Below, piece by piece: positions 37,117 to 63,262 of a DNA stretch of 64,000 nt. Where the stretch lies: NCBI GenBank assembly GCA_965221155.1, contig OZ244869.1, positions 4,519,790 through 4,583,789 on the forward strand, read 5' to 3'. Position 1 is the first letter of the stretch, and each line of letters starts with the position of its first letter. The translations under genes and the position numbers were made by a program. Origin of the DNA: an uncultured Candidatus Binatia bacterium (GTDB taxonomy: Bacteria; Desulfobacterota; Binatia; UBA9968; JAJDTQ01). The notes under the pieces are model-generated. The model was given only the letters and a program-made list of their open reading frames with translations, did no database searches and was not told the DNA's origin.

Positions 37117-37190
37117 CGTCCGGAGCCGGGGAACCCTTAACGAACTGCGGGGATCCCCGGCAAAACCCGCTCCGGAAGCGGTGCACCATC

Positions 37191-38618: not shown

Positions 38619-38659
38619 GGCCGGCATCGTGTTTTCGATGACTTGCCACGAGGATCCAT

Positions 38660-40006: not shown

Positions 40007-40021
40007 TGTGTCGAGTTAAAG

Positions 40022-41327: not shown

Positions 41328-42467
41328 ATGGCGAGAGACGGCTTGAGGATACTCGACAGCGACATGCACGTGTTCGAGCCCCACGACCTCTACCTCAACT
41401 ACATGAACCCCAAGTGGGGTGACCGCATTCCCCGCGGCGAGCCGCGGGAAGGACGCGAGGACAAGGGACTCACGCGCCATGGAATGACGCGTTATGTTCT
41501 GGGCGACGGCAGCCCCATCCGGACCCCGGGCAAGGTCGTGAGTTTTCACGAGAAGCGCCAGAAGGACGCGTACACCCGGCCCGCCAGCCAGAACTACAAC
41601 AACGTCTCGCAGATCGAAGCCATGGACGAGGAAGGACTGGACGTGGCCGTCCAGTTCCGGACCTCGCCGCTGCATACCAACGAGGACTTTGAGCCCGAGT
41701 ACGCCAACGACCTTTGCAAGGCCTGGAACGAGTGGATGCGGGACTTCTGCAGCGCCGATCCGTCGCGGCTCAAGGGTTCGGCCTTGATCACGCTGCACGA
41801 CGTGGAGCTTGCCGTCCAGGAAGCTCGGCGCTCGGTAAAGGAACTGGGCGCGGTGGGGCTGTCCCTCTGCCCGGAGCCCATCAACGGGCGCCACATCCAC
41901 GACCGGGAGTTCGATGCGCTGTGGGCCGAGGCCGTGGACCTCGACGTGCCCATCTGCTTCCATCCGCCGGCCCGTCCCAACCAGGTGCAGGTGTCCCGCC
42001 GCTTCGAGGGGCATCCGAATGAACAACTGCTGGTCAATCCCCTGCGCAATCCCGTGGAGCTGATTCTGGCCGTAAGCGCATTCTGCGCCAGCGGGGTGCT
42101 GGAGAAATTTCCCAAGCTGCGGGTAGCCTTCCTCGAGGGTAACTGTAGCTGGCTGCCGTGGTTGCTGTACCGCCTGGACGAGTACTGTGAGCTCCAGGGG
42201 GCCATGGCGGAAATCCCGCTGCGAAAGAAGCCCAGCGAGTACTTCCGCGACCAATGCTTCATCTCCGCGGATGTGGACGAGGGGCTGGTGGTCAGCGTCA
42301 TTGACTACCTGGGCGACGACAACATCGTCTTCTCCACCGACTACCCGCACATCGACTCCCGCTGGCCCGAGGCCGTCTCTACCTTCACGTCGTTGCCCGG
42401 CCTCAAGAAGGAGTCCCTGGAGAAAATTTTCTGGACCAACTGCGCGCGGCTGTACGGAGTGGAGTAG
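41328..42467 (+). CDS. Amidohydrolase_2 family protein
   Basis: LDSDMHVFEP ... STDYPHID ... WTNCARLYGVE. Paralogue of 53834-54949. Confidence 0.8.
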   Translation: MARDGLRILDSDMHVFEPHDLYLNYMNPKWGDRIPRGEPREGREDKGLTRHGMTRYVLGDGSPIRTPGKVVSFHEKRQKDAYTRPASQNYNNVSQIEAMDEEGLDVAVQFRTSPLHTNEDFEPEYANDLCKAWNEWMRDFCSADPSRLKGSALITLHDVELAVQEARRSVKELGAVGLSLCPEPINGRHIHDREFDALWAEAVDLDVPICFHPPARPNQVQVSRRFEGHPNEQLLVNPLRNPVELILAVSAFCASGVLEKFPKLRVAFLEGNCSWLPWLLYRLDEYCELQGAMAEIPLRKKPSEYFRDQCFISADVDEGLVVSVIDYLGDDNIVFSTDYPHIDSRWPEAVSTFTSLPGLKKESLEKIFWTNCARLYGVE

Positions 42468-44397: not shown

Positions 44398-45351
44398 GTG
44401 TCTGTGACCACGCTGATTACCGGTTCAGGACTCGTCGGGACGTCCTTCGCCCAGGTCGCTCGGCGAAGACGCGCCCGGTTGGTCTTCTATGACGTGCAAC
44501 CTCACGGAGAATTCCTCAAGAGAAAACTGCCGGGAGCCGACGTTGCCTTCGTCCAGGGAGACATTCTGGATCTCCCCGCGCTGTTGCACACGACCAGGCA
44601 ATACGGCGTGGACACCGTGGTACACACTGCGGGTCTGGTCGGCCCCAAGGTCGCGGAAGCGCCCTACACCGGCGTCCGGATCAATGTCATGGGAACCATC
44701 AACGTCCTCGAAGCCGTGCGGCTCTCCGGCGTGAGGCGGCTGGTGCACATCAGCTCCCTCAGCGTCTACGACCAGCGCCGCGACTGCCCCGCGCCCTTGT
44801 GGGAGGCCTTTCCCCGTGGCAACGGCCGGCTGTACGACAACACCAAAGTAGCCAAGGAACTCATGGTCGAGGCATACCAGCGTCTTTACGGCTTCGAGGT
44901 CGTCGTCCTCCGCCTGGCAAAGCTCTATGGCCTCGGCCACTTCCAGGGCGGCTCCGCCGGCGGCCGCCTCATCCAGACCCTGGTGCAATGCGGCCTGCGT
45001 GGGGAGGTGGCACGTGTGCCCCGGCCTCTGACCACGGACTTCGAGTACGTCTACGCCAAGGACGTGGGCCGTGCCGTCGACGTAGCCGCCACCATTCCTC
45101 TGCCGAAAGAGACCTGCTTCAACATCGGGAGCGGCGAGGTGTTGACGTTCGACGAGCTTACGCGGGCCATTAGGGAAGTCCTCCCGGAATTGGAAGTGGA
45201 GATCCTGCCCGGGCCACCGCCCGGAGTTCAGGTGAAACAGCCCATTGACTGCTCCAAAGCCAGAGACCTGCTCGGATGGGAGCCGCGGTACACGATGGAG
45301 GAAGCATTCAGGGACTATGTGGCGGATCTGGAAGACGTGGCGGGCCGGTAA
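44398..45351 (+). CDS. NAD-dependent epimerase/dehydratase (extended SDR)
   Basis: Rossmann motif ITGSGLVGTSFA and YDNTK catalytic motif. Paralogue at 57533-58483. Confidence 0.8.
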   Translation: MSVTTLITGSGLVGTSFAQVARRRRARLVFYDVQPHGEFLKRKLPGADVAFVQGDILDLPALLHTTRQYGVDTVVHTAGLVGPKVAEAPYTGVRINVMGTINVLEAVRLSGVRRLVHISSLSVYDQRRDCPAPLWEAFPRGNGRLYDNTKVAKELMVEAYQRLYGFEVVVLRLAKLYGLGHFQGGSAGGRLIQTLVQCGLRGEVARVPRPLTTDFEYVYAKDVGRAVDVAATIPLPKETCFNIGSGEVLTFDELTRAIREVLPELEVEILPGPPPGVQVKQPIDCSKARDLLGWEPRYTMEEAFRDYVADLEDVAGR

Positions 45352-45369
45352 CCAGGGTTCATTTCCCAC

Positions 45370-45449
45370 GTAGGTCGGATTGGCGAAGCGTAATCCGACA
45401 CTGGGACACAGTACGATGTCGGGTGACCCCTTCGGCCAACCCGACCTAC
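45370..45449. repeat. REP-B inverted dimer
   Basis: GTAGGTCGGATTGGCGAAGCGTAATCCGAC ... GTCGGGTGACCCCTTCGGCCAACCCGACCTAC. Its terminal CTA (45446-45448) is the TAG stop of the ParD-like gene. Confidence 0.85.
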
Positions 45450-45706
45450 AAGGGAACCTTGTTCCTCGCAGTGACGTCCGAAGCCGAGAGGGGATGGAAC
45501 GAGGCATCCGGCGTTGCGAAAGCAAGTTCGAGTTCTGCCTTGAGGCGGTCGAAAGCCTGCCGTTCCCACCGCTCTTTGTCCCGCCGGATTAGATCGCGGA
45601 TGTATTCGTTGACGTTCGCGTAGGCCCCGTTCTCACCGACATTTGCCGAGACGAAGTCGCCGAGCGCCCCGTTGAGGCGAACCGTCACCGTTTTCGTGTG
45701 TGGCAT
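45446..45706 (-). CDS. ParD/CopG-type (CC2985-like) antitoxin, orphan
   Basis: 86 aa. TVRLNGALGDFVSANVGENGAYANVNEYIRDLIRRDKER is typical of ParD-family antitoxins. The position where parE would lie is occupied by REP-B. Confidence 0.7.
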   Translation of the reverse strand: MPHTKTVTVRLNGALGDFVSANVGENGAYANVNEYIRDLIRRDKERWERQAFDRLKAELELAFATPDASFHPLSASDVTARNKVPL

Positions 45707-45834
45707 GGCTAGTGCTCTTCCATCCCGTAACGTCCTGACTTTATGGCCTTTGCGCAGGAGTATGTTAAAGATGGGTTGACGATGCAACTGCGGATGCACG
45801 TTGCAGGTCTCCAGGTAGGTGAGGAGAAAGCACA

Positions 45835-46136
45835 ATGTCGAGCCTGAAGAGAGTCGAGATCAAGGGCTTTCGATCCATCAAGGAGATGACGCTGGATCTC
45901 CGGCCTCTCAATGTCTTGATCGGTGCCAACGGAGCAGGGAAGAGCTGGCCCGTCTACGCTTCTTCGTCGAGGGTCCAACAGAACAGACGTTCGCGGACAC
46001 CCTCTTGAAGCGCCATTTGGCGAACTTCGGGGCTGAGACTATTGGCTTGGAGAATCTCCGGTCCAAGTGTCCTCACTTCAAAAGATGGATTGAGCGACTT
46101 GAGAAACTCGGAGCGGAGTCCCTCCGGGAGCCATGA
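45835..46136 (+). pseudogene. Collapsed remnant of an AAA/ABC-type ATPase gene plus a DUF4276 (Toprim/OLD-like) gene
   Basis: Frame 1 reads MSSLKRVEIKGFRSIKEMTLDLRPLNVLIGANGAGKS (Walker A) and then breaks. Frame 0 from about 45950 reads RLRFFVEGPTEQTFADTLLKRHL (DUF4276 N-terminus) joined to CPHFKRWIERLEKL (DUF4276 C-terminus). Confidence 0.6.
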
Positions 46137-49100
46137 CGCCGATGACGAGAACGACGAAAGGATTGGCGGCGGCGGTGGAGGCCTATCTCGCCGATCTCAG
46201 GCGCGTGCGCGCGTCGGGCGGCGCCACCGGGGAGCGGTCGAGCTACGGCCCGTTGGTGAACCTGCTCAATGCGGTGGGCGCGACGCTCAAGCCCAAGGTG
46301 TTCTGTGTCGGCGAGTTGGCGGACCAGGGTGCGGGCCATCCCGACTTCGGCCTCTACGCGGCCAAGCAGTTGCAGAAGGGGAGACCCAGGGAAGGGCAGG
46401 CTCCCGAGCGCGGCGTTGTCGAGGTCAAGTCCGCCGGCGACGACGCGTGGCTGGTCGCGGACAGCGATCAGGTGAACCGCTACTGGGGCCGCTACCAACT
46501 GGTGCTGGTGACGAACACGCGCGACTTCGTGCTCGTCGGCCCGGACCCGGCCAGAGGCGGTGCGGTGCTCGAGTCTTTCCGTCTGGCCGACAGCGAGGCA
46601 GCGTTCGATCTTGCGCTGGAAAAGCCGCGCGCATTCGCCCGCGAAGTCGGCTCGGGCTTGGCTGAGTATCTCTGTCGCGCGTTGTCCCATCAAGCCGCTC
46701 TGACCGAGCCAAAGGACTTGGCTTGGCTGCTCGCGTCCTATGCCCGCGACGGCCTCTCACGTGTCGAGGCCGCGGGCAGCGCTCCGTCCCTCAACGCCGT
46801 TCGTTCGGCCCTTGAAGAGGCGCTCGGCGTGCGCTTCGAGGGGGAGAAGGGCGCGCGCTTCTTCCTGTCGACACTGGTGCAGACCCTCTTCTACGGCGTC
46901 TTCTCTGCCTGGGTGCTGTGGGCGCGGCAACTCCCGTCACCTGCCGGCAATTTCAACTGGCATGAAGCGGTCTGGCATCTGCGCGCGCCGGTGCTGCGGG
47001 CGCTGTTCCAGCAGCTTTCCGATCCCGGCCGGCTGCAACCCCTCGGCTTGGTCGAGGTGTTGGACTGGACCGCGGCCGCCCTCGACCGGGTGGACCGGCC
47101 TGCGTTCTTCGCCCGCTTCAACGAGGGCGAGGCGGTGCCGTACTTCTACGAGCCGTTCCTCGAAGCCTTCGACCCCGAGCTGCGGAAACAGTTGGGCGTC
47201 TGGTACACGCCAGCGGAGGTAGTTCGCTACATGGTCGCTCGCGTTGACAAGGCGTTGAAGGACGACCTGGGTGTTGCCGAGGGCCTCGCCGCGGAAAACG
47301 TCTACGTGCTCGACCCGTGCTGCGGCACCGGTGCGTATCTCGCAGAAGTGCTGCGCCGCATCGCCGGCAATCTCGAAGGACGGGGTCTCGGCGCCCTCGC
47401 GGGCGCGCGGGTGAAGCAGGCGGCCACGGAACGCGTGTTCGGGTTCGAGATCATGCCCGCACCCTTCGTCGTTGCGCATTTACAAGTCGGGCTCACCATG
47501 CAGGACCTCGACGCGCCGCTGGCGGATGACGAAAAGGAGCGCGCCGGTGTCTTTCTAACCAACGCGCTCACCGGCTGGGAGCCAAGGACGAACAAGCCCC
47601 TGCCGTTTCCCGAGCTCGAAGAAGAACGCGACCGCGCCGAGCGCGTGAAGCAGGAAACGCCCATCCTCGTAATCCTCGGCAACCCGCCCTACAACGGCTT
47701 CGCCGGCATGGCGGTGGACGAGGAGCGGGAGCTCTCGGGAGCCTATCGCAAGACGAAGCGCGTGCGCCGGCCCGAGGGCCAGGGCCTGAACGATCTCTAC
47801 GTCCGCTTTTTCCGCATGGCGGAACGGCGCATCGCCGAGAAGACCGGACGGGGTGTGGTCTGCTTCATCTCGAACTACTCCTGGCTTGACGGGCTGTCCT
47901 TCACGGGAATGCGGGAGCGATACCTTGAAGCGTTCGACGCGGTCCGCATCGACTGCCTGAACGGCGACAAGTATAAGACCGGAAAGGTGGCGCCTGACGG
48001 CTCGCCGGACCCGAGCGTCTTCTCGACGGAAGGCGACCCGGTGGGCATCCAGGTCGGTACCGCCATCACGACGCTGGTGCGCAAGGCCGACCACGCCCCG
48101 GCCGGGGAGATCGGCTTTCGCCATTTGTGGGGACAGACTAAGCCTGCAGAACTGATGGAATCGTCGGAAGCGGAGCCGGTGGCACTCTACGACGGCATCG
48201 AGCCGGTACTGCCGCTGGGTCTGCCGTTTGTGCAAACGGCCTTCAGCGAGGACTGGTTCGACTGGCCGGCGCTGCCCGACCTGTTTCCGGCTTCATTTCC
48301 AGGGATCGAGACTGCCCGCGACGGATTTCTCGTCGATACCGATCTCGACCGGCTCAGGACCCGCATCGCCGACTACTTCGACGCAGATTTGAGCCATGAG
48401 GACATCGCGCGACGTTATCCGGGAGCGATGAAGAACATATCGGGGTTCGATGCTCGTTCGGTACGTGAAATACGGCTTAAGCGAGGGGGCCCTGACGAGG
48501 CCGGCTTTGTCCGCCATGCCTACCGGCCGTTCGACAATCGGTGGCTCTACTGGGAAGCAGATGGCGGTTTGCTCAGGCGTCCGGTAGGTGACTACAGGCC
48601 GCATGTATTCGAAGGAAATCGGTGGCTTTCCAATGCCCAACACTTACGGAAAGGCGCGGCGGCACCGCAGGCATGCTTCACTCAACATATCGGCGGTCGG
48701 CATTTGATAGAGCGCGGTGCCAATTGGTTTCCTGCTTGGCTTCGTGGCGATGGCGTTGGAAAGACTGGCAACCGCGCGCGCCGTGCAAATCTTTCGGAGA
48801 CGGCACGACGCTACCTCAGACGTCTCGGTGTGGGCGTGGAGGACTTGTTCCATCACGTCCTCGCCATCCTTCACGATCCGGCTTACCGCGAGGCCAATGC
48901 CGGAGCACTCAGGATGGAATGGCCGCGCATCCCGCTTCCCGGCTGGCCGAGTGGCGGGGCCGAGGGCGCAGCGGAAGTGCTCGCCCGGTCGGCGGCGCGC
49001 GGTCACGAACTCGCCCGGCTACTCGATCCCGACACGCCCGTTCCGAGCGTGACCCAAGGGACCCTGCGCCCGGAGATCGCCAGCATCGCTGTACCTACCA

Positions 49101-49483
49101 CCGTCGATGGACACAACATGACTGGCGACGATTTCGCGCTGACCGCCGGATGGGGACATTACGGAACCGGCGACGCCGTAATGCCCGGCCAGGGCCGCAT
49201 CGTTGAGCGCGAGTACACGTCGGACGAACGCGCCGCGTTGGGGGAGGCGATATCCACGCTGGGCGCAAAGACCTTGGACGTGTATTTGAACGACCGTGCC
49301 TATTGGCGCAATGTCCCCGCCGTCGTCTGGAGCTACAAGCTCGGCGGTTATCAGGTGCTCAAGAAATGGCTGTCGTATCGTGAACGCGATGTCCTCGGGC
49401 GGGCGCTGTTACTGGGGGAAGTCCAGCACTTCACGGACACCGCGCGGCGGGTTGCCATGATAGCGGCTATGCCAAGAACCTAA
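46133..49483 (+). CDS. Single-polypeptide type IIG/IIL-like restriction-modification enzyme (N6-adenine MTase with type ISP-like C-terminal domain)
   Basis: MTase motif I VLDPCCGTGAYL and motif IV GNPPYNGFAG. The post-MTase region (ISNYSWLDGLSFTGMRERYL; long C-terminal domain) resembles type ISP/MmeI-class enzymes. The N-terminus has a PD...EVK pattern (P70-D71, E97-V98-K99). No helicase motifs. Confidence 0.75.
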   Translation: MTPMTRTTKGLAAAVEAYLADLRRVRASGGATGERSSYGPLVNLLNAVGATLKPKVFCVGELADQGAGHPDFGLYAAKQLQKGRPREGQAPERGVVEVKSAGDDAWLVADSDQVNRYWGRYQLVLVTNTRDFVLVGPDPARGGAVLESFRLADSEAAFDLALEKPRAFAREVGSGLAEYLCRALSHQAALTEPKDLAWLLASYARDGLSRVEAAGSAPSLNAVRSALEEALGVRFEGEKGARFFLSTLVQTLFYGVFSAWVLWARQLPSPAGNFNWHEAVWHLRAPVLRALFQQLSDPGRLQPLGLVEVLDWTAAALDRVDRPAFFARFNEGEAVPYFYEPFLEAFDPELRKQLGVWYTPAEVVRYMVARVDKALKDDLGVAEGLAAENVYVLDPCCGTGAYLAEVLRRIAGNLEGRGLGALAGARVKQAATERVFGFEIMPAPFVVAHLQVGLTMQDLDAPLADDEKERAGVFLTNALTGWEPRTNKPLPFPELEEERDRAERVKQETPILVILGNPPYNGFAGMAVDEERELSGAYRKTKRVRRPEGQGLNDLYVRFFRMAERRIAEKTGRGVVCFISNYSWLDGLSFTGMRERYLEAFDAVRIDCLNGDKYKTGKVAPDGSPDPSVFSTEGDPVGIQVGTAITTLVRKADHAPAGEIGFRHLWGQTKPAELMESSEAEPVALYDGIEPVLPLGLPFVQTAFSEDWFDWPALPDLFPASFPGIETARDGFLVDTDLDRLRTRIADYFDADLSHEDIARRYPGAMKNISGFDARSVREIRLKRGGPDEAGFVRHAYRPFDNRWLYWEADGGLLRRPVGDYRPHVFEGNRWLSNAQHLRKGAAAPQACFTQHIGGRHLIERGANWFPAWLRGDGVGKTGNRARRANLSETARRYLRRLGVGVEDLFHHVLAILHDPAYREANAGALRMEWPRIPLPGWPSGGAEGAAEVLARSAARGHELARLLDPDTPVPSVTQGTLRPEIASIAVPTTVDGHNMTGDDFALTAGWGHYGTGDAVMPGQGRIVEREYTSDERAALGEAISTLGAKTLDVYLNDRAYWRNVPAVVWSYKLGGYQVLKKWLSYRERDVLGRALLLGEVQHFTDTARRVAMIAAMPRT

Positions 49484-49580
49484 GAGTTTCAGCTTGCATT
49501 ACCTCGGAGATTGAGACCCTGCGTCAACAGTTGTGGGATATTCGCGCTAGTTGGGGTTGGTTCTCAGGAAACACCCAATA

Positions 49581-52500
49581 ATGAACGCTGACGACTTTTT
49601 CAATGCGGGTACTACCGCGGACATTCTCCCGAAGGGCGACGCTGCGCGTCAAGCAGTCGATTCTCTGCGAGGCTATGCGTATCAGGCATTGGCGGCGGCC
49701 CTTGCATGGCTCGATATCAACGAAAAGGATCGGCTTTTTCTGGAAGTCGCTGAAGACTATGCGATTATAGCGAAGCAGGCACTTCAAGCTGTTCAAGTCA
49801 AAGACACAGAAGGATCCGGATCGGTCACCTTGAATAGCCCAAGCGTCCACAAGGCGATCGCTGCGTTTGTCGATCTTGCCGAGCGAAATCCCGACATTCA
49901 GGTTTCCCTCCGTTTCTTCACGACATCGAAGATGGGAATCGAGCAAGCTATTGCCGATCGCCCGGCGGGGATGGCTGGATTGGAGTATTGGCGAAAAGTC
50001 GCCGGTGGAGCGGACCCGTCACCCCTCCGCACAATATTGGAGAGCGACAGATTCCCGGAATCTGTAAGAACCTTCTCCAAGGTTCGCGAGGACGCGGCGC
50101 TCCGTAGCGACCTCATTCTGAGGATACATTGGGACTGCGGTAAGCGGGACTTCTCGACGCTTCGCCAAGAACTTGAGGAGCGGCTGGTCGTCGTAGGCCG
50201 TGACCGATTCCATCTTCCAGCTCCAGAGGCGCGGCGGCTTGCCGATCCCTTGGTCTATCGGGTGCTTAAGAAAAGTATCCTAAATGCCCCTCAGGATCGT
50301 GTTCTTACACGCGCTGACCTGTACGAGGCGATCGATGCGGCGACCCTAACTTCAGTGCCGAGCGCTACTGTAGAGGGTCTCGCCCGACTTGCCGCGGGCT
50401 TGACGGGATCGTTTGGCGGAGGTCTGGATCCAGGCAATCCTCTCTCCGTTACGGAAACAGACTGGCTCATTGACGGTACCACGCTTCCCGTCCCGCAGGG
50501 GATGCTCGTCCGGGACGCCGTCGAGTCCACGGTGACTGACGCTCTCAGGACTTTCGGAGCAAGCATGCTCGTAGGCAGCAGCGGTCTTGGCAAGACCACC
50601 GTGTCACGGGCCGTCGCCGTCGCGCAGGCCGGTGCATTCTTCGTGTTGGACTTTCGGAATGCTGACGCGGACGAAACACGTCGCCGGCTGGACATGGTTC
50701 TTGGCCGAATTGGAGGTCTACCCTCTTCGGTACTGATCCTGGACGACCTGAACCATTTTGACGACACGCGTGTTACGTTGTCGTTGGCGCGTGTCATTGA
50801 AGCTTCACGTCGGCGCGACCGCGAGGTGCTCGTAACGTGCTACCGGAAACCCTCCTTGAAGGCGCTGGCTGAGGTCGGCTTCGATCAAGGTTGCGTCGTG
50901 GTTTGCCCATATTTCTCGAAGGATGAAGTCCGTGCGCTTGTCCTTAACAACAACGGGGATCCGGATGAATGGTCGCCTCTCGCATACCTGGCAGGAGCTG
51001 GCGGTCATCCCCAGCTTACACATGCTTTCGTAACAGGGATCGCGGCGCGTGGATGGCCCGTCAAGGAGATTGAAGACATCCTCAGTTGCGGTCTGTCGTC
51101 CGGTGACATTGATGCGGCCCGCGATGCAGCACGGCGCCATTTGATGTCCGCGCTTCCCGAACAAACGCGTAACCTTCTCTATCGACTCAGTCTTATAATC
51201 GGCCGCTTCAATCGGTCACTAGCGTTAGCGATTGGCGGGATTCCTCCGCCCGTATCCCAAACTGGTGAATGCATGGACCGCCTAGTCGGGCCATGGATCG
51301 AAGCTGCCGGCAGGGATCAATTCCGAGTCTCACCACTGGCGAGAAGTTTTGGGCCTGAGATGCTGCCCTCTGATGAGCAAAAGCGCATCCATGAGACCAT
51401 CGCAGTGCAGATGCTTGGAACGGGCAAGATCGATGCGAGCGATGTCGACACCATCATATTGCATGCAATCAAAGGTAAATCGCCGCAAAGCCTAGCCGTG
51501 CTTGGGCTTAGTGTGCTGTCGGCCGATGCTCGCGTAGTCGAGTCGCTCGCAGAACACCTCTCGCTCTTCCGCATTCTCCCAACCAATGGATCTATCTACG
51601 CCGAGGACTCTTTAGCGTCCGCGATACTTCGGCTCATGCAGTTCAAACTGGCCGCTGTGGCAGGTGAAGGAAGCAAGATTTCTGACATTGCAGTAGCACT
51701 TTTCAGTGAGATTGACGCCTTGCCGGAAGGTGAAATGAAGCGTGCTATTGAAGTGATGGCGATAGTCACTGTGCTCGGCACGATGGGGGTCGCAAATTAT
51801 CTCAACAATTGGGTTGGCCTTTTAGTTCGTCTGAAAACCATGGTTGAGACCGACAAGGACTTGCAAGTTGTTGCTGCGAGTCTCCAAGGTTCGGACGATG
51901 CGGGTGGCTCGAACCTCTTTGCTATGCTCCTTGCTATCGGAAGCGCCAATGTCGCATCTGTAGAGCGGCTTGAGCAACTCGTAGACGAACTCGATGAGCT
52001 GGACGCGAACGAGCGAGTACTTTGGCTAAAACCGCTAGAAAAAGATTCTTCCGACTACGCCGTGTTCATCAATGGCCCTTGGGCTACGCAGAGTCGCAGT
52101 GACACTTTCGACCCAGCAGACTCCGCAGTGCGCTACAAACGAATGGCGGAGAAGACGCGGTGTTGGGGCATTCGCGCCCTTTCGCTTCAGTGTTCTGTGG
52201 CTCAGGCGGCCATGTTGGATGAGTATCAGAACAACAAAGAGGGTGCACTAGCGGTCCTCAAGGAAGCGGTATCCGTCCAGGGAGCGGATGTCATCCTCGA
52301 TCGCGCCATAGCCAAAGTTCACTGGCGTCATGGCGAACATAGGACAGCCCTCAACATCCTGCGTGGCATCGCCGATCAGGTTGGTAGGGACAGTCCTGTT
52401 GAGCGTGCTTTCGCGCTACGTGAGGCGGCGATCAGCGCGGCGAAATGCGACGACTGGTCGCAAGCGGAGAAATGGTTTCTTGACGCACAAAGCGCCGCCA

Positions 52501-53675
52501 AATCAGTTCAACTCAATAGCATGGAGGTAATGGCTATTGGCCTGGGAGCCGATTCGGCTGTGGCTGCTCTTGAGGCTGAGGATGTGGACTCGGCGCTGAG
52601 GCGACTTGCGGAAGCGGTAGAGGCGCTGGCGGATGTCGACCCCAAGGCTACGCTGAGCGCGGCATACTGCCATCGTGTCATTCGCCATACTGTCCTATGG
52701 TCGCAATCCCGCATCGTGGGAAGCGACGTCAAAATCGGCGGACGGCCAATCGGAATGGAGGCAGGGACCTGCAGCAATCCGGACCCGTTGCCAGCAGTCA
52801 AGGAGCTTCCACTCGAACACATTGATATTACTTGGTACATGCTGGCCGTGGCGGAGACCGCAGCCGGCGTCGACGTGGGAATCACGACGGGACTCGAAGG
52901 TCGCCTGGCGGAAGGTCCAATTCCGGCAATGGAGTTCGAATTGCATACCCAAGCGATACAGCAGGATATCGGTAGCCTCGATTCCGTCGGATTTACAGAT
53001 CACTTTACGGCGTATGTCGGGTCCGCCGACTACATGTTAAAGGAGGTTGGCCGACTCCGGACAACTTTCGATCCGGTGGTACCGGAAAGAAGGCAGAAGC
53101 CCGTTCCTGACGAAAAGGCGCCATTTGGTCCTCGGGTGGAACAGGTGGCAAAAGAAACCATTCTAGCCTATGGGATCATCGCCGCGTTGGCAGACCAACA
53201 TGATGCGATGACGCAACTTGAAGCCGCCATGCATAGTCGATTGACAAAGCCGTTTCCCGGGAAACCCGTATTCGACCATTGGAACGGAGAGTCGAGTTTG
53301 CTCGCAGAATTGGACCACATTGTTGTAGACATCATCAAGGCGCTTCTCCGAAACGAGCATCTCAAACCTGATGAGTTCTGGATGGCGGGGTTCCGCCTTT
53401 TTGAGTGGATCAACCTATCCAATTTTAAGCTTCTTCTCATGAAGCGCCTCGCCGCGTGGCAGAGATCCGGATGGGAGCGAATATCCACTGAAGAATCATT
53501 CCGTCTTTCCAGACCGCGTCAGAGTTTGCCTCCCATTGAGGAAGTTCTAAGGATACCCGCAAATGATCGGAGGTTCGTCGCGAAGCTTCTCCTAGCAAGT
53601 TCCGAGGCAGTCGGCGCCCCTCTTGGGTCGGCATCTCGGGATGTCCTTAAGGCTGTGGCAGAAGGAGCAGAATGA
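49581..53675 (+). CDS. Cap4/DUF4297-like nuclease - P-loop (STAND-like) NTPase - helical-repeat protein, 1364 aa
   Basis: GYAYQ (aa 31-35), LFLEVAED (52-59), QVK (72-74). Walker A LVGSSGLGKT (330-339) and Walker B VLILDD (384-389). About 800 aa of Ala/Leu-rich helical sequence follow. A hand count of 49801-49900 gives 54 G+C per 100 nt. The start is ATG 49581 or GTG 49551. Confidence 0.7.
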   Translation: MNADDFFNAGTTADILPKGDAARQAVDSLRGYAYQALAAALAWLDINEKDRLFLEVAEDYAIIAKQALQAVQVKDTEGSGSVTLNSPSVHKAIAAFVDLAERNPDIQVSLRFFTTSKMGIEQAIADRPAGMAGLEYWRKVAGGADPSPLRTILESDRFPESVRTFSKVREDAALRSDLILRIHWDCGKRDFSTLRQELEERLVVVGRDRFHLPAPEARRLADPLVYRVLKKSILNAPQDRVLTRADLYEAIDAATLTSVPSATVEGLARLAAGLTGSFGGGLDPGNPLSVTETDWLIDGTTLPVPQGMLVRDAVESTVTDALRTFGASMLVGSSGLGKTTVSRAVAVAQAGAFFVLDFRNADADETRRRLDMVLGRIGGLPSSVLILDDLNHFDDTRVTLSLARVIEASRRRDREVLVTCYRKPSLKALAEVGFDQGCVVVCPYFSKDEVRALVLNNNGDPDEWSPLAYLAGAGGHPQLTHAFVTGIAARGWPVKEIEDILSCGLSSGDIDAARDAARRHLMSALPEQTRNLLYRLSLIIGRFNRSLALAIGGIPPPVSQTGECMDRLVGPWIEAAGRDQFRVSPLARSFGPEMLPSDEQKRIHETIAVQMLGTGKIDASDVDTIILHAIKGKSPQSLAVLGLSVLSADARVVESLAEHLSLFRILPTNGSIYAEDSLASAILRLMQFKLAAVAGEGSKISDIAVALFSEIDALPEGEMKRAIEVMAIVTVLGTMGVANYLNNWVGLLVRLKTMVETDKDLQVVAASLQGSDDAGGSNLFAMLLAIGSANVASVERLEQLVDELDELDANERVLWLKPLEKDSSDYAVFINGPWATQSRSDTFDPADSAVRYKRMAEKTRCWGIRALSLQCSVAQAAMLDEYQNNKEGALAVLKEAVSVQGADVILDRAIAKVHWRHGEHRTALNILRGIADQVGRDSPVERAFALREAAISAAKCDDWSQAEKWFLDAQSAAKSVQLNSMEVMAIGLGADSAVAALEAEDVDSALRRLAEAVEALADVDPKATLSAAYCHRVIRHTVLWSQSRIVGSDVKIGGRPIGMEAGTCSNPDPLPAVKELPLEHIDITWYMLAVAETAAGVDVGITTGLEGRLAEGPIPAMEFELHTQAIQQDIGSLDSVGFTDHFTAYVGSADYMLKEVGRLRTTFDPVVPERRQKPVPDEKAPFGPRVEQVAKETILAYGIIAALADQHDAMTQLEAAMHSRLTKPFPGKPVFDHWNGESSLLAELDHIVVDIIKALLRNEHLKPDEFWMAGFRLFEWINLSNFKLLLMKRLAAWQRSGWERISTEESFRLSRPRQSLPPIEEVLRIPANDRRFVAKLLLASSEAVGAPLGSASRDVLKAVAEGAE

Positions 53676-53833
53676 CTTCAAGTGCCGCATAGTTTCAGAT
53701 ACTCTACCATCTCGATCTGGGTCTAACGGAAACTGGAGTAGCAGAAACTCCCTCTGCGGGGAGCTCTCGCCGGAGTTGATACAGATTTCATAGCCGCCAA
53801 TAGGATGCCAGGACGGCAGTAAGGAGCAGGGAT

Positions 53834-54949
53834 ATGGCCAGGAACGGTTACCAGGTATTCGACAGCGACATGCACGTCTACGACGCGCAGAATCTCTATG
53901 AGAAGTACATGAACCCCAAGTGGGGGGAGCGGATTCCCGTCGGCAGCGCCCGCAGCAAGCACGGGCGCATCGTGTTCAGCTTGGGCAACGGCACCGTGAT
54001 GCGGCCGCGGGAGAAGCTGCTGGAGCACGGCGAGGACAAGGTGGCGGACCGTTACGGCTACGCGCTGGAGCACGGCTACGACGCACCGTCCCAGGTAGTG
54101 GCCATGGACAACGAAGGGTTGGACGTGGCGGTGATGTTCCGCACCTCTCCGCTGCACTGCGACGACAGCTTCGAGGCGGAATACGCCAACGACCTGTGCC
54201 GGGCGTGGAACGATTGGATCGCGGCCTTCTGCGGCGAGCGGCCGGAGCGCATGAAGGCGTCGGGGCTGTTGACGCTGCACGATGTGGATATGGCCGTGGA
54301 CGAGGCGCGGAGAGCGGTGACGGAACTGGGCGTGGTAGGCCTTTCGGTTTGCCCGGAGCCTGTCAACGGCCGGCGCATCCACGACCGTTACTACGACCCC
54401 CTGTGGGCCGAGATCGACCGGCTGAAGGTGCCGCTGTGCTTTCATCCGCCGGCAAATCCCAAGCAGCAGCAGGTGGCGCGGGAGTTCTACGGCCATCCCA
54501 ACTCCAGCGTGATTGCCATGGCGCTGCGCAACCCCATCGAGCTTCAACTGGCGGTGTCCGCCTTCTGTGGCGGGGGCGTGCTGGAGAAGTTCCCGACCCT
54601 GAAGGTGGCGTTTCTCGAAGGGAACTGCGCGTGGTTGCCTTGGCTGTTGTACCGGCTGGACGAAAGGGCCGAGCTCCACGGCGCCCTCACCGACGTCCCG
54701 CTGTCCCGGAAGCCCAGCGAGTACTTCCTTGACCAGTGCTACATCTCCGTGGACGTGGACGAGTATCTGGTCACCGACGTCGTCGGGCGTCTGGGAGACG
54801 ACAACATCGTCATCTCCACGGACTACCCGCACATCGACGCGCACTACCCGCACGCGGTGGAGGAGTTCATGGAGACCCCAGGCCTGAGCAACAGTTCCCT
54901 CAAGAAAATCCTCTGGGACAACTGCGCGAGGCTCTACGGCGTGAGTTGA
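53834..54949 (+). CDS. Amidohydrolase_2 family protein
   Basis: FDSDMHVYD ... STDYPHIDAHYPH ... WDNCARLYGVS. Confidence 0.8.
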   Translation: MARNGYQVFDSDMHVYDAQNLYEKYMNPKWGERIPVGSARSKHGRIVFSLGNGTVMRPREKLLEHGEDKVADRYGYALEHGYDAPSQVVAMDNEGLDVAVMFRTSPLHCDDSFEAEYANDLCRAWNDWIAAFCGERPERMKASGLLTLHDVDMAVDEARRAVTELGVVGLSVCPEPVNGRRIHDRYYDPLWAEIDRLKVPLCFHPPANPKQQQVAREFYGHPNSSVIAMALRNPIELQLAVSAFCGGGVLEKFPTLKVAFLEGNCAWLPWLLYRLDERAELHGALTDVPLSRKPSEYFLDQCYISVDVDEYLVTDVVGRLGDDNIVISTDYPHIDAHYPHAVEEFMETPGLSNSSLKKILWDNCARLYGVS

Positions 54950-56689: not shown

Positions 56690-57289
56690 TCATTCCTCTG
56701 GTTCGTCGTGAGCTTCACGCACGAACTCGACTAATTCTACCTGGTCTGCCGGTATCAGAATCGCGGACACGCCCGTCGCGGGGATACGCTCATTTTCGAT
56801 CAACCACTCGGCTTCCGCAATTCGAAAGTGTCCTTCGTCGGGACGACTTGGCCACTCCTCGGGCCAGCCATAGAGATGACGTTCTCCCTTGAGGTGTAAC
56901 GTAACATAGCAATCGCAGTGGCGCGAGAAGGCGGAATACCACTCAGACGGGTACGAAGTCTCCCTGGTTACGCCGATCCGGCGAAGAAGACGGTGAACCG
57001 TGTCCCTGTTGAGGAAATAGGAAGTCAGCAGCCCAAGGACGACAGCGATCGCCACAGAGAGAAGGATCTCCCAGTTCTTGCCCTTAGGTTCACTGTCCAG
57101 AACGCTTCCGAGCAACAGGATAGCATCCCTGATGGCATGCCCGATTACGGTGAAGATGAGCGCTTGAACGACGCGGTCAAAGGGGCTGGGCTTGGGATAG
57201 GAAGTGAGGGAGTAGAAGATGCTCGCTGCTACGAATCCAGGCAAGAGGAAAGTCAGGACGCCTATAATGTCGCCGGATGCCCAACTCAC
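56690..57289 (-). CDS. Hypothetical membrane protein (3-4 N-terminal TM helices plus a soluble C-terminal domain; possibly DUF6338-like)
   Basis: 199-aa ORF with hydrophobic segments at aa 8-30, 45-65 and 75-95, in a lower-GC stretch. The family assignment is tentative. Confidence 0.45.
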   Translation of the reverse strand: MSWASGDIIGVLTFLLPGFVAASIFYSLTSYPKPSPFDRVVQALIFTVIGHAIRDAILLLGSVLDSEPKGKNWEILLSVAIAVVLGLLTSYFLNRDTVHRLLRRIGVTRETSYPSEWYSAFSRHCDCYVTLHLKGERHLYGWPEEWPSRPDEGHFRIAEAEWLIENERIPATGVSAILIPADQVELVEFVREAHDEPEE

Positions 57290-58483: not shown

Positions 58484-58535
58484 AGCCACGGCTCACGGGC
58501 CGGGCTCGAGCGCCCCGCGAAGAGGGGAGTGAGTG

Positions 58536-59984
58536 ATGAGTTCAGGACAGGCATTGGAATCCGAAGCCGTTCGCGCCCGGCTTGACCATCCGATCATCGA
58601 TACCGACGGCCACACGGTTGAGCTGACTCCGCTGTACCTCGACTATCTCAAGGAACTGGGCGGCGCCGACATGCCGCGGCGCTATGCGGAGGCCACGAGC
58701 GCCCGCTCCAACAGCCGCTGGTCCTCCATGACGGAAGCCGAGCGCCGCAGCGTCCGGGCGCATTGCCCGCCCTGGTGGGCGCGTCCGGCGAGCAACACCC
58801 TGGACCGGGCCACGGCGTCGTTGCCGCGGCTGCTGCACGAGCGAATGGACCGGCTGGGTATCGACTTCGCGGTGCTGTATCCCACCGAGGGGTTGGCCGG
58901 CCCGCCCCGGTTCGAGGATGAGGAGCTTCGCCGGGTTTCCTGCCGGGCATTGAACAAGTTCCACGCGGAATTCTACGGCGAATGCTCGGACCGGATGACC
59001 CCGGCCGCGGTGATTCCCACCCACACCCCGGAAGAGGCCATCGAGGACACCGAATACGCCATCCGCGAGCTCGGCCTCAAGACCATCGTCATCTCCCACG
59101 TGGACCGGCCCATCCCGCGGGTAGCGGAAGCACGGCCGGACCTGGCGCCCTTCGCCCGCTACATCGACAACCTGGCTCTGGACAGCGAGTATGACTACGA
59201 TCCGTTCTGGCAGCGGTGCATGGAGCTGGGCGTGGCGCCGACGTCCCACGCCAGCGGCCAGGGCTGGGGTAGCCGGCGCTCGGTGTCCAACTACATGTAC
59301 AACCACATCGGCCACTTCGCCGCGGCTGGTGAGGCTATGTGTAAGGCGATGTTTTTCGGCGGGGTTACGTATCGGTTTCCAATGCTCAACTTCGCTTTCT
59401 TGGAGTGCGGGGTCGGGTGGGCGTGCGGCTTGTACAGCGACATCCTGGAGCACTGGGAGAAACGCAACCGGGACGCCATTGCCACGCTGGACCCGGAGAG
59501 CCTCGACGTCGATCTCATGATGAAGCTCGTGGCGGAGTACGGCGGCATCGAAGGCGAGGAGAAGCTCGACCGGATCCGCGCGTCGCTGGGCCGGAAGGAG
59601 CGTCGTCCGGAGATCCTCGATGACTGGTCCCGTTGCGGCATTGAGCAGGCCGAGGACATCCGCGACCGCTTCGTGCCGCGCTTCTACTTCGGTTGCGAGG
59701 CCGACGACCGCATGATCGCCTGGGCCTTCAACGACAAGCTGAACCCCTTCGGCGCCCGGCTCGGAGCCATGATGAGCTCGGACATCGGCCACTGGGACGT
59801 CACCGACATGACCGAGGTGGTGGCCGAGGCCCACGAGCTGGTGGACCGGGGGCATATCACCGAAGAGGATTTTCGCGACTTCAGCTTCACCAACGCGGTG
59901 CGCTTCTATTCCGGCATGAATCCGGATTTCTTTGCCGGTACGGCCTGTGAGGAAGCGGCCGCCCGGGTGACGGCGGCGAGTTAG
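58536..59984 (+). CDS. Amidohydrolase_2 family protein (long form)
   Basis: IDTDGHTVE N-terminal metal motif and C-terminal SSDIGHWD. About 482 aa. Confidence 0.75.
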   Translation: MSSGQALESEAVRARLDHPIIDTDGHTVELTPLYLDYLKELGGADMPRRYAEATSARSNSRWSSMTEAERRSVRAHCPPWWARPASNTLDRATASLPRLLHERMDRLGIDFAVLYPTEGLAGPPRFEDEELRRVSCRALNKFHAEFYGECSDRMTPAAVIPTHTPEEAIEDTEYAIRELGLKTIVISHVDRPIPRVAEARPDLAPFARYIDNLALDSEYDYDPFWQRCMELGVAPTSHASGQGWGSRRSVSNYMYNHIGHFAAAGEAMCKAMFFGGVTYRFPMLNFAFLECGVGWACGLYSDILEHWEKRNRDAIATLDPESLDVDLMMKLVAEYGGIEGEEKLDRIRASLGRKERRPEILDDWSRCGIEQAEDIRDRFVPRFYFGCEADDRMIAWAFNDKLNPFGARLGAMMSSDIGHWDVTDMTEVVAEAHELVDRGHITEEDFRDFSFTNAVRFYSGMNPDFFAGTACEEAAARVTAAS

Positions 59985-60043: not shown

Positions 60044-61150
60044 ATGAAAGACGGATTGAAGATCATGGACTCGGACATGCACGTGCGCGAGCCCGCGGAC
60101 CTGTGGGAAAAGTACATGGAGCCCGAGTGGCGCGACCGAGGGCCCAGGATCCTGAGCACCACCACCCGCAGCTCGGCCATGGTCATGGTCGACGGCAAGA
60201 TCCTCAAGGGCTACCCGCCCAGCTACCGCGGCGGCATCTTCGACGCCACCCGCATCGACGCGGAGATCGCGGACGCCCGGGCACGGGGCTTCGACGGCGT
60301 CTCGCAGCTCGACGCCATGGAGAAGGAGGGGCTGGATCTGGCCGTCATGTATCCGTCCATCGGCTTGGGCGTCATGATGCGCGAGGACATGGACCCCAAG
60401 CTCGGCGCCGCGGTGGCCCGGGCCTACAACAACTGGCTCCATGATTTCTGCCAGACCGACCCCAAGCGGATGAAGGGTGCGGCCATGATCTCGCTCCACG
60501 ACGTCACCGAGGCCGCGAAGGAGGCCCGGCGGGCGGTGGAGGAGCTGGGCTTCGTGGCGGTGTTCGCGCGTCCGGAGCCGCTCCGCTCCATGCCCTGGCA
60601 CGCCCGCTACTACGACATTCTGTGGTCCACGCTAGAGGAGCTGGGCATCCCCATGGGCTTCCATTCGGCCGCTTCCGCCGGCGAGGTCCGGCAGATAGGC
60701 GACGTGTTTGGCGATGACCTCTTGCTGCGGCACATCTGCGAGCACCCCATGTCCAACATGATGGCCATGATCGACATCATCGGCGGCGGCGTTCTGGAGC
60801 GCCACCCCAAGCTCAAGGTGGCTTTCCTCGAGTGCTACTGCGGCTGGGTCTCCTTCATGCTCCACCGCATGGACGTCACCGTGGCCAAGGCCCGGAACCC
60901 CACCATCTCGGAGCTGAAGCCCAGCGAGTTCTTCAAGCGGCAGTGCTGGATCTCCACCGAATCCGAGAAGGAACTCCCCATGGTCGCCGAGCTCATCGGC
61001 GACGACAACATCGTCTACTCCACCGACTACCCGCACGGCGACTCGGACTTCCCCCACGCCGTGGAAGAGTTCCTGGAGGTCGAAGGCGTCTCCAAGGAGA
61101 CCAAGCGGAAGATACTGTGGGACAACTGCGCGCGGCTGTACGATCTGTAA
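60044..61150 (+). CDS. Amidohydrolase_2 family protein
   Basis: MDSDMHVREP ... STDYPHGDSDFPH ... WDNCARLYDL. Confidence 0.8.
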   Translation: MKDGLKIMDSDMHVREPADLWEKYMEPEWRDRGPRILSTTTRSSAMVMVDGKILKGYPPSYRGGIFDATRIDAEIADARARGFDGVSQLDAMEKEGLDLAVMYPSIGLGVMMREDMDPKLGAAVARAYNNWLHDFCQTDPKRMKGAAMISLHDVTEAAKEARRAVEELGFVAVFARPEPLRSMPWHARYYDILWSTLEELGIPMGFHSAASAGEVRQIGDVFGDDLLLRHICEHPMSNMMAMIDIIGGGVLERHPKLKVAFLECYCGWVSFMLHRMDVTVAKARNPTISELKPSEFFKRQCWISTESEKELPMVAELIGDDNIVYSTDYPHGDSDFPHAVEEFLEVEGVSKETKRKILWDNCARLYDL

Positions 61151-61231: not shown

Positions 61232-62185
61232 ATGAGCATGAAGCAGAGTGGCGAGATGTCCAAATCCGCCATACGACCTAGCGAAGGCGACGAGAGGCTT
61301 AAACTAGATGCGCTAGTGGCCAGCATCCTTTCGAACGAGATTGCAATCTTCGATTTGCTGGGCTCTGCACCAAGCGGTGACTACTGGGCGTTTGTTCAGC
61401 GCGAACGCTTGTTCCACGCTCTATCGCGCGAACCACGCGTTCTGGGGCACTTTGTGGCAGAGTTGCGCTCGAAGATCGTCGAGGCGGGCGGTAACCCCGA
61501 CGATGACGCGATCACGAAGGAGCTTACACGTAAGGATGGCCTCCGCCGGTTCTCGAAGCTCGAAAACGAGCGGTCTCAAGCGTTCAGCGTCCAGCCTTCG
61601 CTCCTATCCGGCGAGACCTTTGAGGCATGCCTTGAGCAGTACAAGGCTCTCATTGCGTATGTTGAAAGTTTGTGGGCAGACGCGTCCCAACTCTACAATC
61701 TTGGAAATTTTCCACTCGCCACGTTCCTTTCAATCCTTGTAATCGAAGAGGTCGGGAAACTGACCCATCTCGCGCTGGATCTCGTTTCTTATGATATGCC
61801 ACGTACCCCTACGCAGGGTGACGTAGTCGAACGAAGTCATCGGCGGAAGCACTTCATTGGCGTGATGTCAGGGGCATTGATCAACGCCCGCTTGGATCGC
61901 GTGTTGGGGAAGGATGTTATCCGCAAAGTACTACACCAAGCCGAAAGTGACGAACTCGAAAAGATCCGGCAAAGCTGTCTCTACATCGACATGAGAGACG
62001 GTCGCGTGATGACGCCCAGAGAACGCATTGACGCTGAATGCGCCAGGGTGCTCACGGTCCTTGCTGGTGAGCTGTTGGCAGAAGTTCTGGGTCATTTCCC
62101 TTGGGAGTTCGAACGCATGCTCAATGCAGTGATAGCCTTCGAACGCGCGATAGGTATCCCTGAGGAGAAGGTCAGGCCTGCGTAG
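61232..62185 (+). CDS. AbiV-like (HEPN_AbiV) abortive-infection family protein with an N-terminal extension of about 140 aa
   Basis: The C-terminal half has GNFPLATFLSILVIEEVGKL followed by ERSHRRKHF (R-x-H type HEPN motif) and CLYID, the pattern I associate with AbiV. A hand count of 61301-61400 gives 52 G+C per 100 nt. Confidence 0.6.
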   Translation: MSMKQSGEMSKSAIRPSEGDERLKLDALVASILSNEIAIFDLLGSAPSGDYWAFVQRERLFHALSREPRVLGHFVAELRSKIVEAGGNPDDDAITKELTRKDGLRRFSKLENERSQAFSVQPSLLSGETFEACLEQYKALIAYVESLWADASQLYNLGNFPLATFLSILVIEEVGKLTHLALDLVSYDMPRTPTQGDVVERSHRRKHFIGVMSGALINARLDRVLGKDVIRKVLHQAESDELEKIRQSCLYIDMRDGRVMTPRERIDAECARVLTVLAGELLAEVLGHFPWEFERMLNAVIAFERAIGIPEEKVRPA

Positions 62186-62559: not shown

Positions 62560-62888
62560 CCAATACCATGAGCTACAAGGGCTATTCAGCCCGAATCGAA
62601 TATGACGACGAAGACGGAATCTTCACGGGCCGGATCGCCGGCATTCGTGATGGCGTGGGCTTTCATGCGGAGGCGGTGGATGGACTGCGAGAAGCCTTTC
62701 ATGAGGCCGTTGAGGATTACATCGAGACCTGCGCCAGGATCGGCAAGGAACCGCAGAAGGCTTTTTCCGGTCAAGTGATGTTCCGTATCAGCCCTGAAGT
62801 TCACCGCAAGGCCGCCCTTGCGGCTGAATTGTCCGGCAAGAGCCTGAACCAATGGGCGGAAGAGGTGTTGGCGCGCGCCGCGACTTAG
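62556..62888 (+). CDS. hicB: HicB-family antitoxin
   Basis: YKGYSARIEYDDEDGIFTGRI.....V.FHAE....L...F.EAVEDYIETC, plus a C-terminal RHH (FSGQVMFRISPEVHRKAALAAELSGKSLNQW). 4-nt overlap with hicA. Confidence 0.85.
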   Translation: MTNTMSYKGYSARIEYDDEDGIFTGRIAGIRDGVGFHAEAVDGLREAFHEAVEDYIETCARIGKEPQKAFSGQVMFRISPEVHRKAALAAELSGKSLNQWAEEVLARAAT

Positions 62889-62927
62889 CCATGAGTCCAG
62901 TCGCTGACATGCCTGGTGGAGTCGAGA

Positions 62928-63203
62928 ATGAGTGACTTGCCGACCTACGTGCTGGAGCGGGTATTCGACGCGCCGCGTGAGTTGGTGTGGAGGACGTGGA
63001 CCGATGCGGAGTTGTTGCCGCGCTGGTACGGGCCGAGGGTGGAGAAAGAGGGCGCTCAGACGAGGATGCGCTTCACCTGGGTGCCGCACGAGCCGAGCGA
63101 GGCCGAGATTGCCTGTTTCGCCTCGGCGATGAGCGGCATGGACAAAGGCTGGGGCGCCGGCATGGAGTTGCTCGCGGAGTTGGTGTCTGAATTGCAGGCT
63201 TGA
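62928..63203 (+). CDS. SRPBCC/AHSA1-like protein, apparently internally shortened
   Basis: The N-terminus YVLERVFDAPRELVWRTWTDAELLPRWYGP is typical of the Aha1-like SRPBCC family. The protein is only 91 aa against the usual 140-160, so it may be a decayed gene. Confidence 0.5.
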   Translation: MSDLPTYVLERVFDAPRELVWRTWTDAELLPRWYGPRVEKEGAQTRMRFTWVPHEPSEAEIACFASAMSGMDKGWGAGMELLAELVSELQA

Positions 63204-63262
63204 CGGCCACTGCACGTTTGCCGCCCGCCTACACGTCATCCCCTATTATTACGCGACGTCCC

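Follow-up and report, generated by a model that had tools for sequence, protein, structure and literature searches.

A predicted Cap4-type nuclease fused to a STAND-like NTPase in a Candidatus Binatia genome: a candidate Avs-like antiviral receptor

We analysed a gene in a 64,000-nucleotide stretch of DNA (hereafter the window; contig OZ244869.1, positions 4,519,790 to 4,583,789, assembly GCA_965221155.1) from an uncultured Candidatus Binatia bacterium. Its product of 1,364 amino acids (aa) joins a Cap4-type nuclease head, a STAND-like NTPase and a tetratricopeptide repeat (TPR) tail in one polypeptide. By analogy with Avs proteins, the product is probably an Avs-like antiviral STAND receptor that acts on its own, with a Cap4-type nuclease. 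Most likely, the very large, unnamed and horizontally mobile family to which it belongs is an uncharacterised member of the Avs-type receptors and not a new kind of system. A preliminary description of this DNA, made from the letters alone, had spoken of a candidate new antiviral system; this was an overstatement, since Avs3 and Avs7 already have the Cap4-STAND-TPR architecture and 589 STAND clades have been catalogued (PMC13581612).

Nuclease head, NTPase and repeat tail

Translation of 49581-53675 on the forward strand of the window gives 1,364 codons and a stop, and the open reading frame (ORF) and five motifs quoted in the preliminary description lie exactly where it had placed them (GYAYQ 31-35, LFLEVAED 52-59, QAVQVKD 69-75, LVGSSGLGKT 330-339, and VLILDD 384-389). 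The longest possible ORF would start at a TTG at 49551, upstream of the ATG at 49581; we preferred the ATG because the N-termini of homologues read MNxxDLFNAG. The sequence AGGA is present ~11-14 nt 5' of this ATG. In what follows, residue counts out of 96 refer to divergent full-length relatives (26-50% identity) and model votes out of 36 refer to divergent family members.

By profile and motif evidence, the first 256 residues are a PD-(D/E)xK nuclease domain of the Cap4/DUF4297/LmuA type, with predicted nuclease activity. The PADLOC LmuA model matched aa 23-213 of the window protein (4.7e-10), and across the family LmuA was matched by 26 of the 36 members (best 8.5e-18) and DUF4297 by 22. 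The head also aligned in sequence with a solved HerA-associated DUF4297 nuclease (8ziq, 8xav), with the GY.YQ, E..ED, and Q.K motifs coinciding, and its Foldseek matches were 9c1m_G (1.3e-6) and LmuA 9nxx (1.3e-5). The profiles and the motif-level alignment thus bear out a Cap4-type head, which had been proposed from the motifs. Among the 96 relatives this is the most conserved block of the protein, with G31 retained in 90, Y34 in 88, Q35 in 91, E55 in 92, E58 in 91, D59 in 93, Q72 in 90, and K74 in 86 (Arg in a further 8). The region from aa 120 to 320, previously called unfamiliar, turned out to hold the remainder of the Cap4/LmuA-type domain, followed by a linker that is disordered and by the helix that precedes the P-loop.

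The assignment of aa 296-600 as a STAND-type NTPase, with a nucleotide-binding domain, a helical domain, and a winged helix, is largely supported by modelled structure. In an AlphaFold2 (AF2) model of the protein's N-terminal portion (predicted local distance difference test score, pLDDT, 76.8), a five-stranded P-loop core is followed by a helical bundle (helices 447-523) and then by a winged helix (527-583; three helices and a beta-hairpin), and pLDDT is mostly 80-94 over aa 446-600. Foldseek placed Avs3 (8dgc) first, at 2e-13 and with 739 aligned columns across the nuclease and NTPase, followed by CED-4 (1e-7), ZAR1 (5.5e-7), MalT (5.8e-7), Sr35 (6.6e-7), NRC3, RPP1, and Avs4 (4e-6). STAND proteins made up eight of the ten top matches, with Avs3 the best by six orders of magnitude, and p97-type AAA proteins were weaker (5e-6 or worse).

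Residue conservation follows the same pattern. The Walker A lysine, K338 of GSSGLGKT (332-339), is present in all 96 relatives; in Walker B, D388 is Asp or Glu in 95 and D389 is kept in 92. The pre-P-loop R311 is kept in 95, and the helical domain carries a 'GxP' motif (G475 in 95, H476 in 95, P477 in 96) and an invariant W492 (96/96). The STAND feature list that Leipe et al. drew up in 2004 is said to include a GxP in the helical domain followed by a winged helix. An arginine finger was looked for between T419 and beta5 (aa 439-442), and no Arg there reaches 80% conservation in the 96 relatives. The Foldseek ranking, the pre-P-loop Arg, the GxP, the winged helix, and the lack of an arginine finger agree with the STAND-type NTPase suggested earlier. 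The alignments show that the predicted catalytic residues of both the nuclease and the NTPase have been under purifying selection across the family.

The remainder of the protein (aa 601-1364) is presumed to be the sensor. Its AF2 model is confident (pLDDT 89.2; predicted template modelling score, pTM, 0.77) and contains 38 helices, and in relatives the region at aa ~875-1005 scores above the cut-offs of Pfam TPR_2, TPR_14, and TPR_19. The solenoid model and the TPR matches support the earlier proposal of a helical-repeat sensor tail. Foldseek searches with the tail returned only generic TPR superhelices (CNOT10, Ctr9, OGT, Ski3, and APC/C). The tail had also been described as free of transmembrane segments and as rich in Ala and Leu. 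The first description holds: the tail is predicted to be all-helical, and we see no convincing transmembrane segment because the 19-residue Kyte-Doolittle hydropathy peaks at 1.59. The second is correct in its numbers (Ala 13.1%, Leu 10.9%), but the entire protein is equally rich in both and the feature is not specific to the tail. Conservation of the tail is moderate, with near-invariant positions at R684, Q687, R812, W834, W862, R947, and G987/D991 and the most variable stretches at aa ~700-800 and ~1100-1300.

We also noted a near-invariant loop, G1062-x-C-S1065-N-P-x-x-P1069 (52764-52787 of the window), after a short beta-hairpin that interrupts the TPR solenoid; none of 36 divergent sequences departs from it at G1062, S1065, or P1069. 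A ligand contact or an autoinhibitory contact is possible for this loop.

Several observations weigh against an Avs-like STAND receptor. The Pfam Cap4_nuclease match (PF14130) of the window protein stayed below threshold (1.2e-3; 19.6 bits against a cut-off of 26.2), and the N-terminal AF2 model has a pTM of 0.38 and low confidence at the catalytic loop (56-71). Neither the Avs3 nor the Avs4 sensor was retrieved by Foldseek with the tail, and the PADLOC v2 AVAST, Dsr1, and PD-Lambda-4 models matched neither the window protein (E<=0.1) nor the 36 members (E<=0.01). The family has a rigid architecture and a fairly conserved sensor, whereas some Avs families often exchange their heads. In the NTPase, T419 of the sensor-1 region is kept in 93 of the 96 relatives, and the canonical Arg (R422) in only 42, with Lys in 10. 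Pfam AAA (PF00004) is the sole model that the NTPase of the window protein passes (21.9 bits; cut-off 21.2), and a PDB search with the family profile placed classical AAA first (VCP-like, 7e-9).

The last of these points would suit a classical, non-STAND AAA+ ring ATPase that scaffolds or powers the fused nuclease in the manner of HerA-DUF4297, with the tail serving as an adaptor and not as a sensor. We regard this as unlikely. In its favour are the best PDB matches of the family profile (VCP-like, Cdc48, and p97, 7e-9 to 1e-6) and the most frequent vote in the family (AAA, 28 of 36), but the AAA matches span only Walker A to Walker B/sensor 1 (aa 322-419). Pfam models of STAND NTPases recur across the family as well, namely AAA_16 (24/36), nSTAND3 (17/36), NPHP3_N (9/36), NB-ARC (5/36), and NACHT (3/36), and one member, P0241, exceeds the nSTAND3 threshold with 28.8 bits (cut-off 27.2). 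Although p97 and Rix7 do occur among the structural matches at ~1e-6 to 1e-5, the lead of Avs3 and of STAND proteins in that ranking points the other way, as do the STAND features outside the AAA-matched segment (the GxP, the pre-P-loop Arg, and the winged helix) and the lack of a conserved arginine finger after sensor 1. The head sequence is closer to HerA-partnered DUF4297 than to Avs heads; the C-terminal TPR solenoid of ~760 aa, on the other hand, gives the typical layout of a STAND sensor. Because the raw-sequence scores of the P-loop core favour classical AAA, our STAND call rests on structure and motifs.

Comparison with known systems and a proposed mechanism

Avs3 (SeAvs3, 8dgc) is the best structural match and shares with the window protein the Cap4-type nuclease, the STAND NTPase, the helical-repeat sensor, and the encoding by a single gene. 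It differs in length (~2,000 aa against 1,364), the identity is 12%, and it senses terminase through a sensor that our tail did not retrieve. In Avs7 (SeAvs7), too, a single chain carries a Cap4 head of ~225 aa, a STAND NTPase, and a TPR sensor with two lobes (PMC13581612). The SeAvs7 NTPase has a Walker A Lys, a Walker B Asp, and a His in its winged-helix domain; the Cap4 heads of SeAvs7 and SeAvs3 form tetramers, and Avs7 is activated by Cap4 tetramerisation (PMC13581612). The Avs7 sensor is homologous to Dsr1, however, and no Dsr1 model matches the family. Avs7 was compared by description, as its structures (9N00, 9N01, and 9YIX) postdate the Foldseek library.

Other systems share only parts of the architecture. 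nSTAND3 (PF20720), the STAND-specific Pfam model most often matched by the family, is the NTPase class of Avs5 (PMC12931631), and Avs5 also has C-terminal repeats of the TPR type; its effector, however, is SIR2 in place of the Cap4 nuclease, and no AVAST type V match was found. The heads of HerA-DUF4297 and Lamassu LmuA are homologous to ours, and nucleases of the DUF4297/LmuA type are activated by dimerisation or tetramerisation (PMC11291478). In those systems the nuclease is separate and works under HerA hexamers or LmuB/C SMC proteins, whereas here it is fused to the NTPase and TPR module; no HerA or LmuB/C partner gene lies beside any inspected member, and the window holds no HerA, LmuB/LmuC SMC, or CD-NTase neighbour. 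CBASS Cap4 belongs to the same nuclease fold family, as the weak PF14130 match indicates, but the window protein has no SAVED domain and no CD-NTase neighbour and is therefore not controlled by cyclic oligonucleotides.

No Avs protein was returned when the PDB was searched by sequence with the complete protein, with its head, or with its tail. Since no model of a named type matched and the tail is unlike any solved Avs sensor, the protein is not among the named types tested, which were Avs1-5 (AVAST I-V), Avs7 (Dsr1-type sensor), and Avs8 (PD-Lambda-4). Lee et al. (2026) described 589 STAND clades, 684 sensor clusters, and Avs10-24 from seeds that included BLAST hits to Cap4 effectors (PMC13581612). 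The family is probably already within that data set, because the seeds took in Cap4-bearing proteins.

From SeAvs3, SeAvs7, HerA-DUF4297, and Lamassu LmuA, we infer how such a receptor might work. At rest, the protein would be a monomer, probably ADP-bound, with its nuclease autoinhibited and inactive. During infection, the TPR solenoid would capture a phage-derived ligand, most likely a protein, and this capture would open the NTPase and lead to nucleotide exchange and ATP-driven oligomerisation. The Cap4 heads could then come together as dimers or tetramers and so assemble the active site. Indiscriminate cleavage of double-stranded DNA would follow; phage replication would stop and the infected cell would be sacrificed (abortive infection). 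Such a mechanism leaves the current picture of how Avs-type systems work unchanged.

Family spread, exchange, and neighbourhoods of relatives

Of the 512 relatives that a word-indexed search returned, over 120 span the full length at identities of 51-93%; none is named. When aa 300-1364 were searched exhaustively with HMMER, 1,783 representatives of 50% clusters passed E<=1e-3 and 683 passed E<=1e-30; we take the first figure as a lower bound on family size. Among the 150 best, almost all have a length of 1,330-1,375 aa and an NTPase that begins at residue ~280-310, at identities down to 26%. RefSeq entries of the family include WP_015004466.1, WP_247774339.1, WP_318765618.1, and WP_127846912.1. 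Shorter representatives (P0159, P0174, P0165, P0252, and others) were considered as head-swapped relatives and rejected, as they are N-terminal truncations collinear with the head. The label of orphan given in the preliminary description was right in that no partner gene exists; it did not hold for homologues, of which there are hundreds at full length.

Hosts include Acidobacteriota, Binatia, and Alpha- and Betaproteobacteria (among them Binatia and Terriglobia metagenome-assembled genomes and Kiloniellaceae), and identity across phyla is 57-68%. Members are found on chromosomes and on plasmids, the latter in Paraburkholderia, Bradyrhizobium, Agrobacterium, Rhizobium, and Caulobacter; the phage genome collection that we searched contained none. 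Annotations of the plasmid copies were uninformative or wrong ('hypothetical', 'AAA family ATPase', 'tetratricopeptide repeat protein', or 'ABC transporter ATP-binding protein'). In one Terriglobia copy (L003), an insertion (11707-12838 of that locus) encoding a 371-aa IS630-type transposase interrupts the gene at residue ~569, and the two halves differ in identity to the query (70% and 57%). If the function is confirmed, a very large Avs-type family would join the bacterial pattern-recognition receptors, one that is mainly environmental (Acidobacteriota, Binatia, Rhizobiales, Burkholderiales, and Caulobacter), whereas the Avs families tested so far are mostly those of Enterobacteriaceae. An architecture that does not vary and a sensor of comparatively high conservation would make it tractable for trigger discovery.

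The window gene stands out from its surroundings in composition. Its G+C content (GC) is 0.563 and its GC at third codon positions (GC3) 0.585, against a GC3 of 0.78-0.88 in neighbouring genes, and it forms the lowest-GC 4.1-kb stretch of the whole window. Two hand counts from which the preliminary description had suspected horizontal acquisition were exact (54 G+C at 49801-49900 and 74 at 46201-46300). We further compared the window with a related strain of the same arrangement (L016, with the homologue at 2980-7071) by synonymous divergence (dS) and its ratio to nonsynonymous divergence (dN/dS). The gene gave a dS of 0.10 and a dN/dS of 0.34, the flanking amidohydrolase 0.40 and 0.06, and the upstream restriction-modification (RM) gene 0.51 and 0.15. 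Because its dS is 4-5x lower, the gene appears to have been exchanged or replaced more recently than its flanks, and the higher dN/dS points to weaker purifying selection on it than on them. Together with the cross-phylum spread, the GC3 and dS values support horizontal acquisition of the gene.

Among ~15 inspected contexts of relatives, we found no conserved partner gene, in agreement with a single-gene system. By qualitative inspection, nearly all of them have recognisable defence or mobile-element genes no more than 10 kb away, L004 being the weakest case, and many of the neighbours at these loci are RM genes (Table 1). The defence context inferred earlier from the window alone is in this sense shared by the relatives. 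A cellular role outside defence, such as a regulatory STAND protein or a DNA-repair nuclease, could draw on the few recognisable defence genes around L004. It is nevertheless very improbable, given the defence genes that dominate the other neighbourhoods, the patchy cross-phylum distribution at high identity, the atypical composition and recent exchange of the window gene, the carriage on plasmids and an integrative element, the inactivation of the L003 copy by an insertion sequence (IS), and a head from a nuclease family known in defence systems.

The repeated proximity to RM genes raises a further question, namely what the sensor detects. The protein might be an RM-linked guard, the same STAND receptor and nuclease with a TPR sensor for phage anti-restriction factors or for failure of the neighbouring RM system in place of a phage structural protein or another of the core phage proteins that Avs1-24 sense; PrrC, which guards EcoprrI, and PARIS, which senses Ocr, are precedents. 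This would account for the repeated insertion of the gene beside or within operons of the type I, type ISP, and DUF1156 methylase kinds in different phyla. A type ISP RM gene ends 97 nt upstream both in the window and in L016. In L005, L010, and L011 the gene is followed by hsdM, overlapping or at most 12 nt away (with the stop codon overlapping or adjoining the start of hsdM in L005 and L010), in an operon of the order hsdM-hsdS-hsdR-YgjP; L001 is alike, and L017 has a decayed version. In L002 the gene lies between hsdM and hsdR, and in L007 and L012 a DUF1156 methylase follows directly. Several of the type I cases are not independent, however, because L001, L005, L010, and L011 share one island beside dnaX-ybaB-recR, and RM adjacency is expected by chance because RM genes are the commonest genes of defence islands. 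RM types also vary among loci, none lies near the gene in L004, L008, L009, L013, L014, L015, or L018, and the RM gene of the window differs from its neighbour in composition and divergence history. A relatively conserved sensor would suit a conserved ligand, yet on balance we think a guard function improbable and favour the Avs-like receptor described above. The recurrent linkage does offer a testable hypothesis of cooperation between defence systems.

Features of the window

The features of the gene, its immediate neighbours, and the inspected loci are collected in Table 1.

Table 1. Location of features in the window and at loci of relatives (L numbers)
Feature	Location	Strand	Details
Complete gene, Cap4 nuclease + STAND-like NTPase + TPR sensor	49581..53675	+	1364 aa; coordinates include stop codon
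Cap4/DUF4297/LmuA-type PD-(D/E)xK nuclease head, aa 1-256	49581..50348	+	GY.YQ 31-35, E55, E58-D59, Q72.K74
Low-confidence, poorly conserved linker, aa 257-295	50349..50465	+	pLDDT <50 at aa 257-265 and 267-292; column conservation 0.35 (aa 251-300)
P-loop nucleotide-binding domain, aa 296-445	50466..50915	+	Pre-P-loop R311, Walker A 332-339 (K338), Walker B 384-389 (D388/D389), sensor-1 region T419
Helical domain + winged helix, aa 446-600	50916..51380	+	GHP 475-477, W492; helices 527-568, beta-hairpin 573-583
All-alpha TPR-like solenoid, presumed sensor, aa 601-1364	51381..53672	+	AF2 model; TPR matches in relatives
Type ISP/IIG RM gene	46133..49483	+	Type_ISP_C 8e-40; PADLOC REase_MTase_IIG 9e-87
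Collapsed AAA_15 ATPase + DUF4276/OLD-TOPRIM pair	45819..46136	+	DUF4276 fragments 1e-10; AAA_15 fragment 45835-46008, 2e-9
Type I RM directly downstream	L001, L005, L010, L011, L017		Decayed version in L017
Homologue embedded between hsdM and hsdR	L002 (Terriglobia genome)		
DUF1156/DUF499 + HEPN-MNT pairs	L007, L012		DUF1156 methylase system immediately downstream
UvrD + type III-like RM	L006		
SIR2, GmrSD, TIR-STAND, IS elements	L013		
Intact AAA + DUF4276 pair, IS66	L008 (Paraburkholderia)		
Gabija-like ATPase + helicase pairs, HEPN, HipA/VapBC	L014, L015		
Integrative element with DUF927 + tyrosine integrase	L018		
Type ISP RM 97 nt upstream, same arrangement as window	L016 (related strain)		

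The preliminary description had placed the gene directly downstream of a type IIG-like RM gene and next to decayed defence genes, and both statements agree with the profile matches. The RM gene lies on the same strand and has a host-like GC3 of 0.78. A promoter and terminator scan found no site between it and the gene, and fewer sites than in shuffled sequences. Directly abutting the RM start is the AAA_15 remnant, which comprises the first ~37 residues including Walker A and runs into two DUF4276 fragments; intact, such a pair would have the gene arrangement of PARIS. Conserved synteny with the intact AAA and DUF4276 pair of L008 was considered and rejected, and we treat the presence of the pair at both loci as co-occurrence only because tblastn found no similarity between them.

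Because the flanks carry ordinary metabolism (a GlcDEF-like glycolate oxidase at 37113-41299, amidohydrolases, an epimerase, and a solute-binding protein), we delimit a defence islet at ~45.4-53.8 kb. A repeat search across 45200-54100 gave no boundary repeats and no att-like scars. Four Amidohydro_2 paralogues lie within 20 kb (41328-42467, 53834-54949, 58533-59984, and 60044-61150), two of which bracket the islet. At its left edge, a 129-aa ORF on the reverse strand (45446-45835) resembles by eye a ParD/ribbon-helix-helix antitoxin in its C-terminal half (…VTVRLNGALGDFV…YIRDLIRRD…); Pfam gave no match at E<=0.01, and we identified no toxin gene beside it.

Three further genes of the window are of separate interest. 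A 398-aa protein encoded on the reverse strand (35647-36843) combines HATPase_c with DUF4325 (STAS-like) at its C-terminus and gives a weak MarR-like signal; the GC around it, next to the glycolate oxidase genes, is 0.546 (36001-37000), and this gene too may have been acquired. A second patch of low GC, at 61-63 kb (GC 0.55-0.58), holds an intact HEPN_AbiV abortive-infection gene (61232-62185, forward strand; Pfam 1.3e-24) beside an ORF on the reverse strand (62586-63239) with no Pfam match. Downstream of the solute-binding protein gene, 56690-57289 on the reverse strand encodes a protein of the DUF6338 family (2.6e-16).

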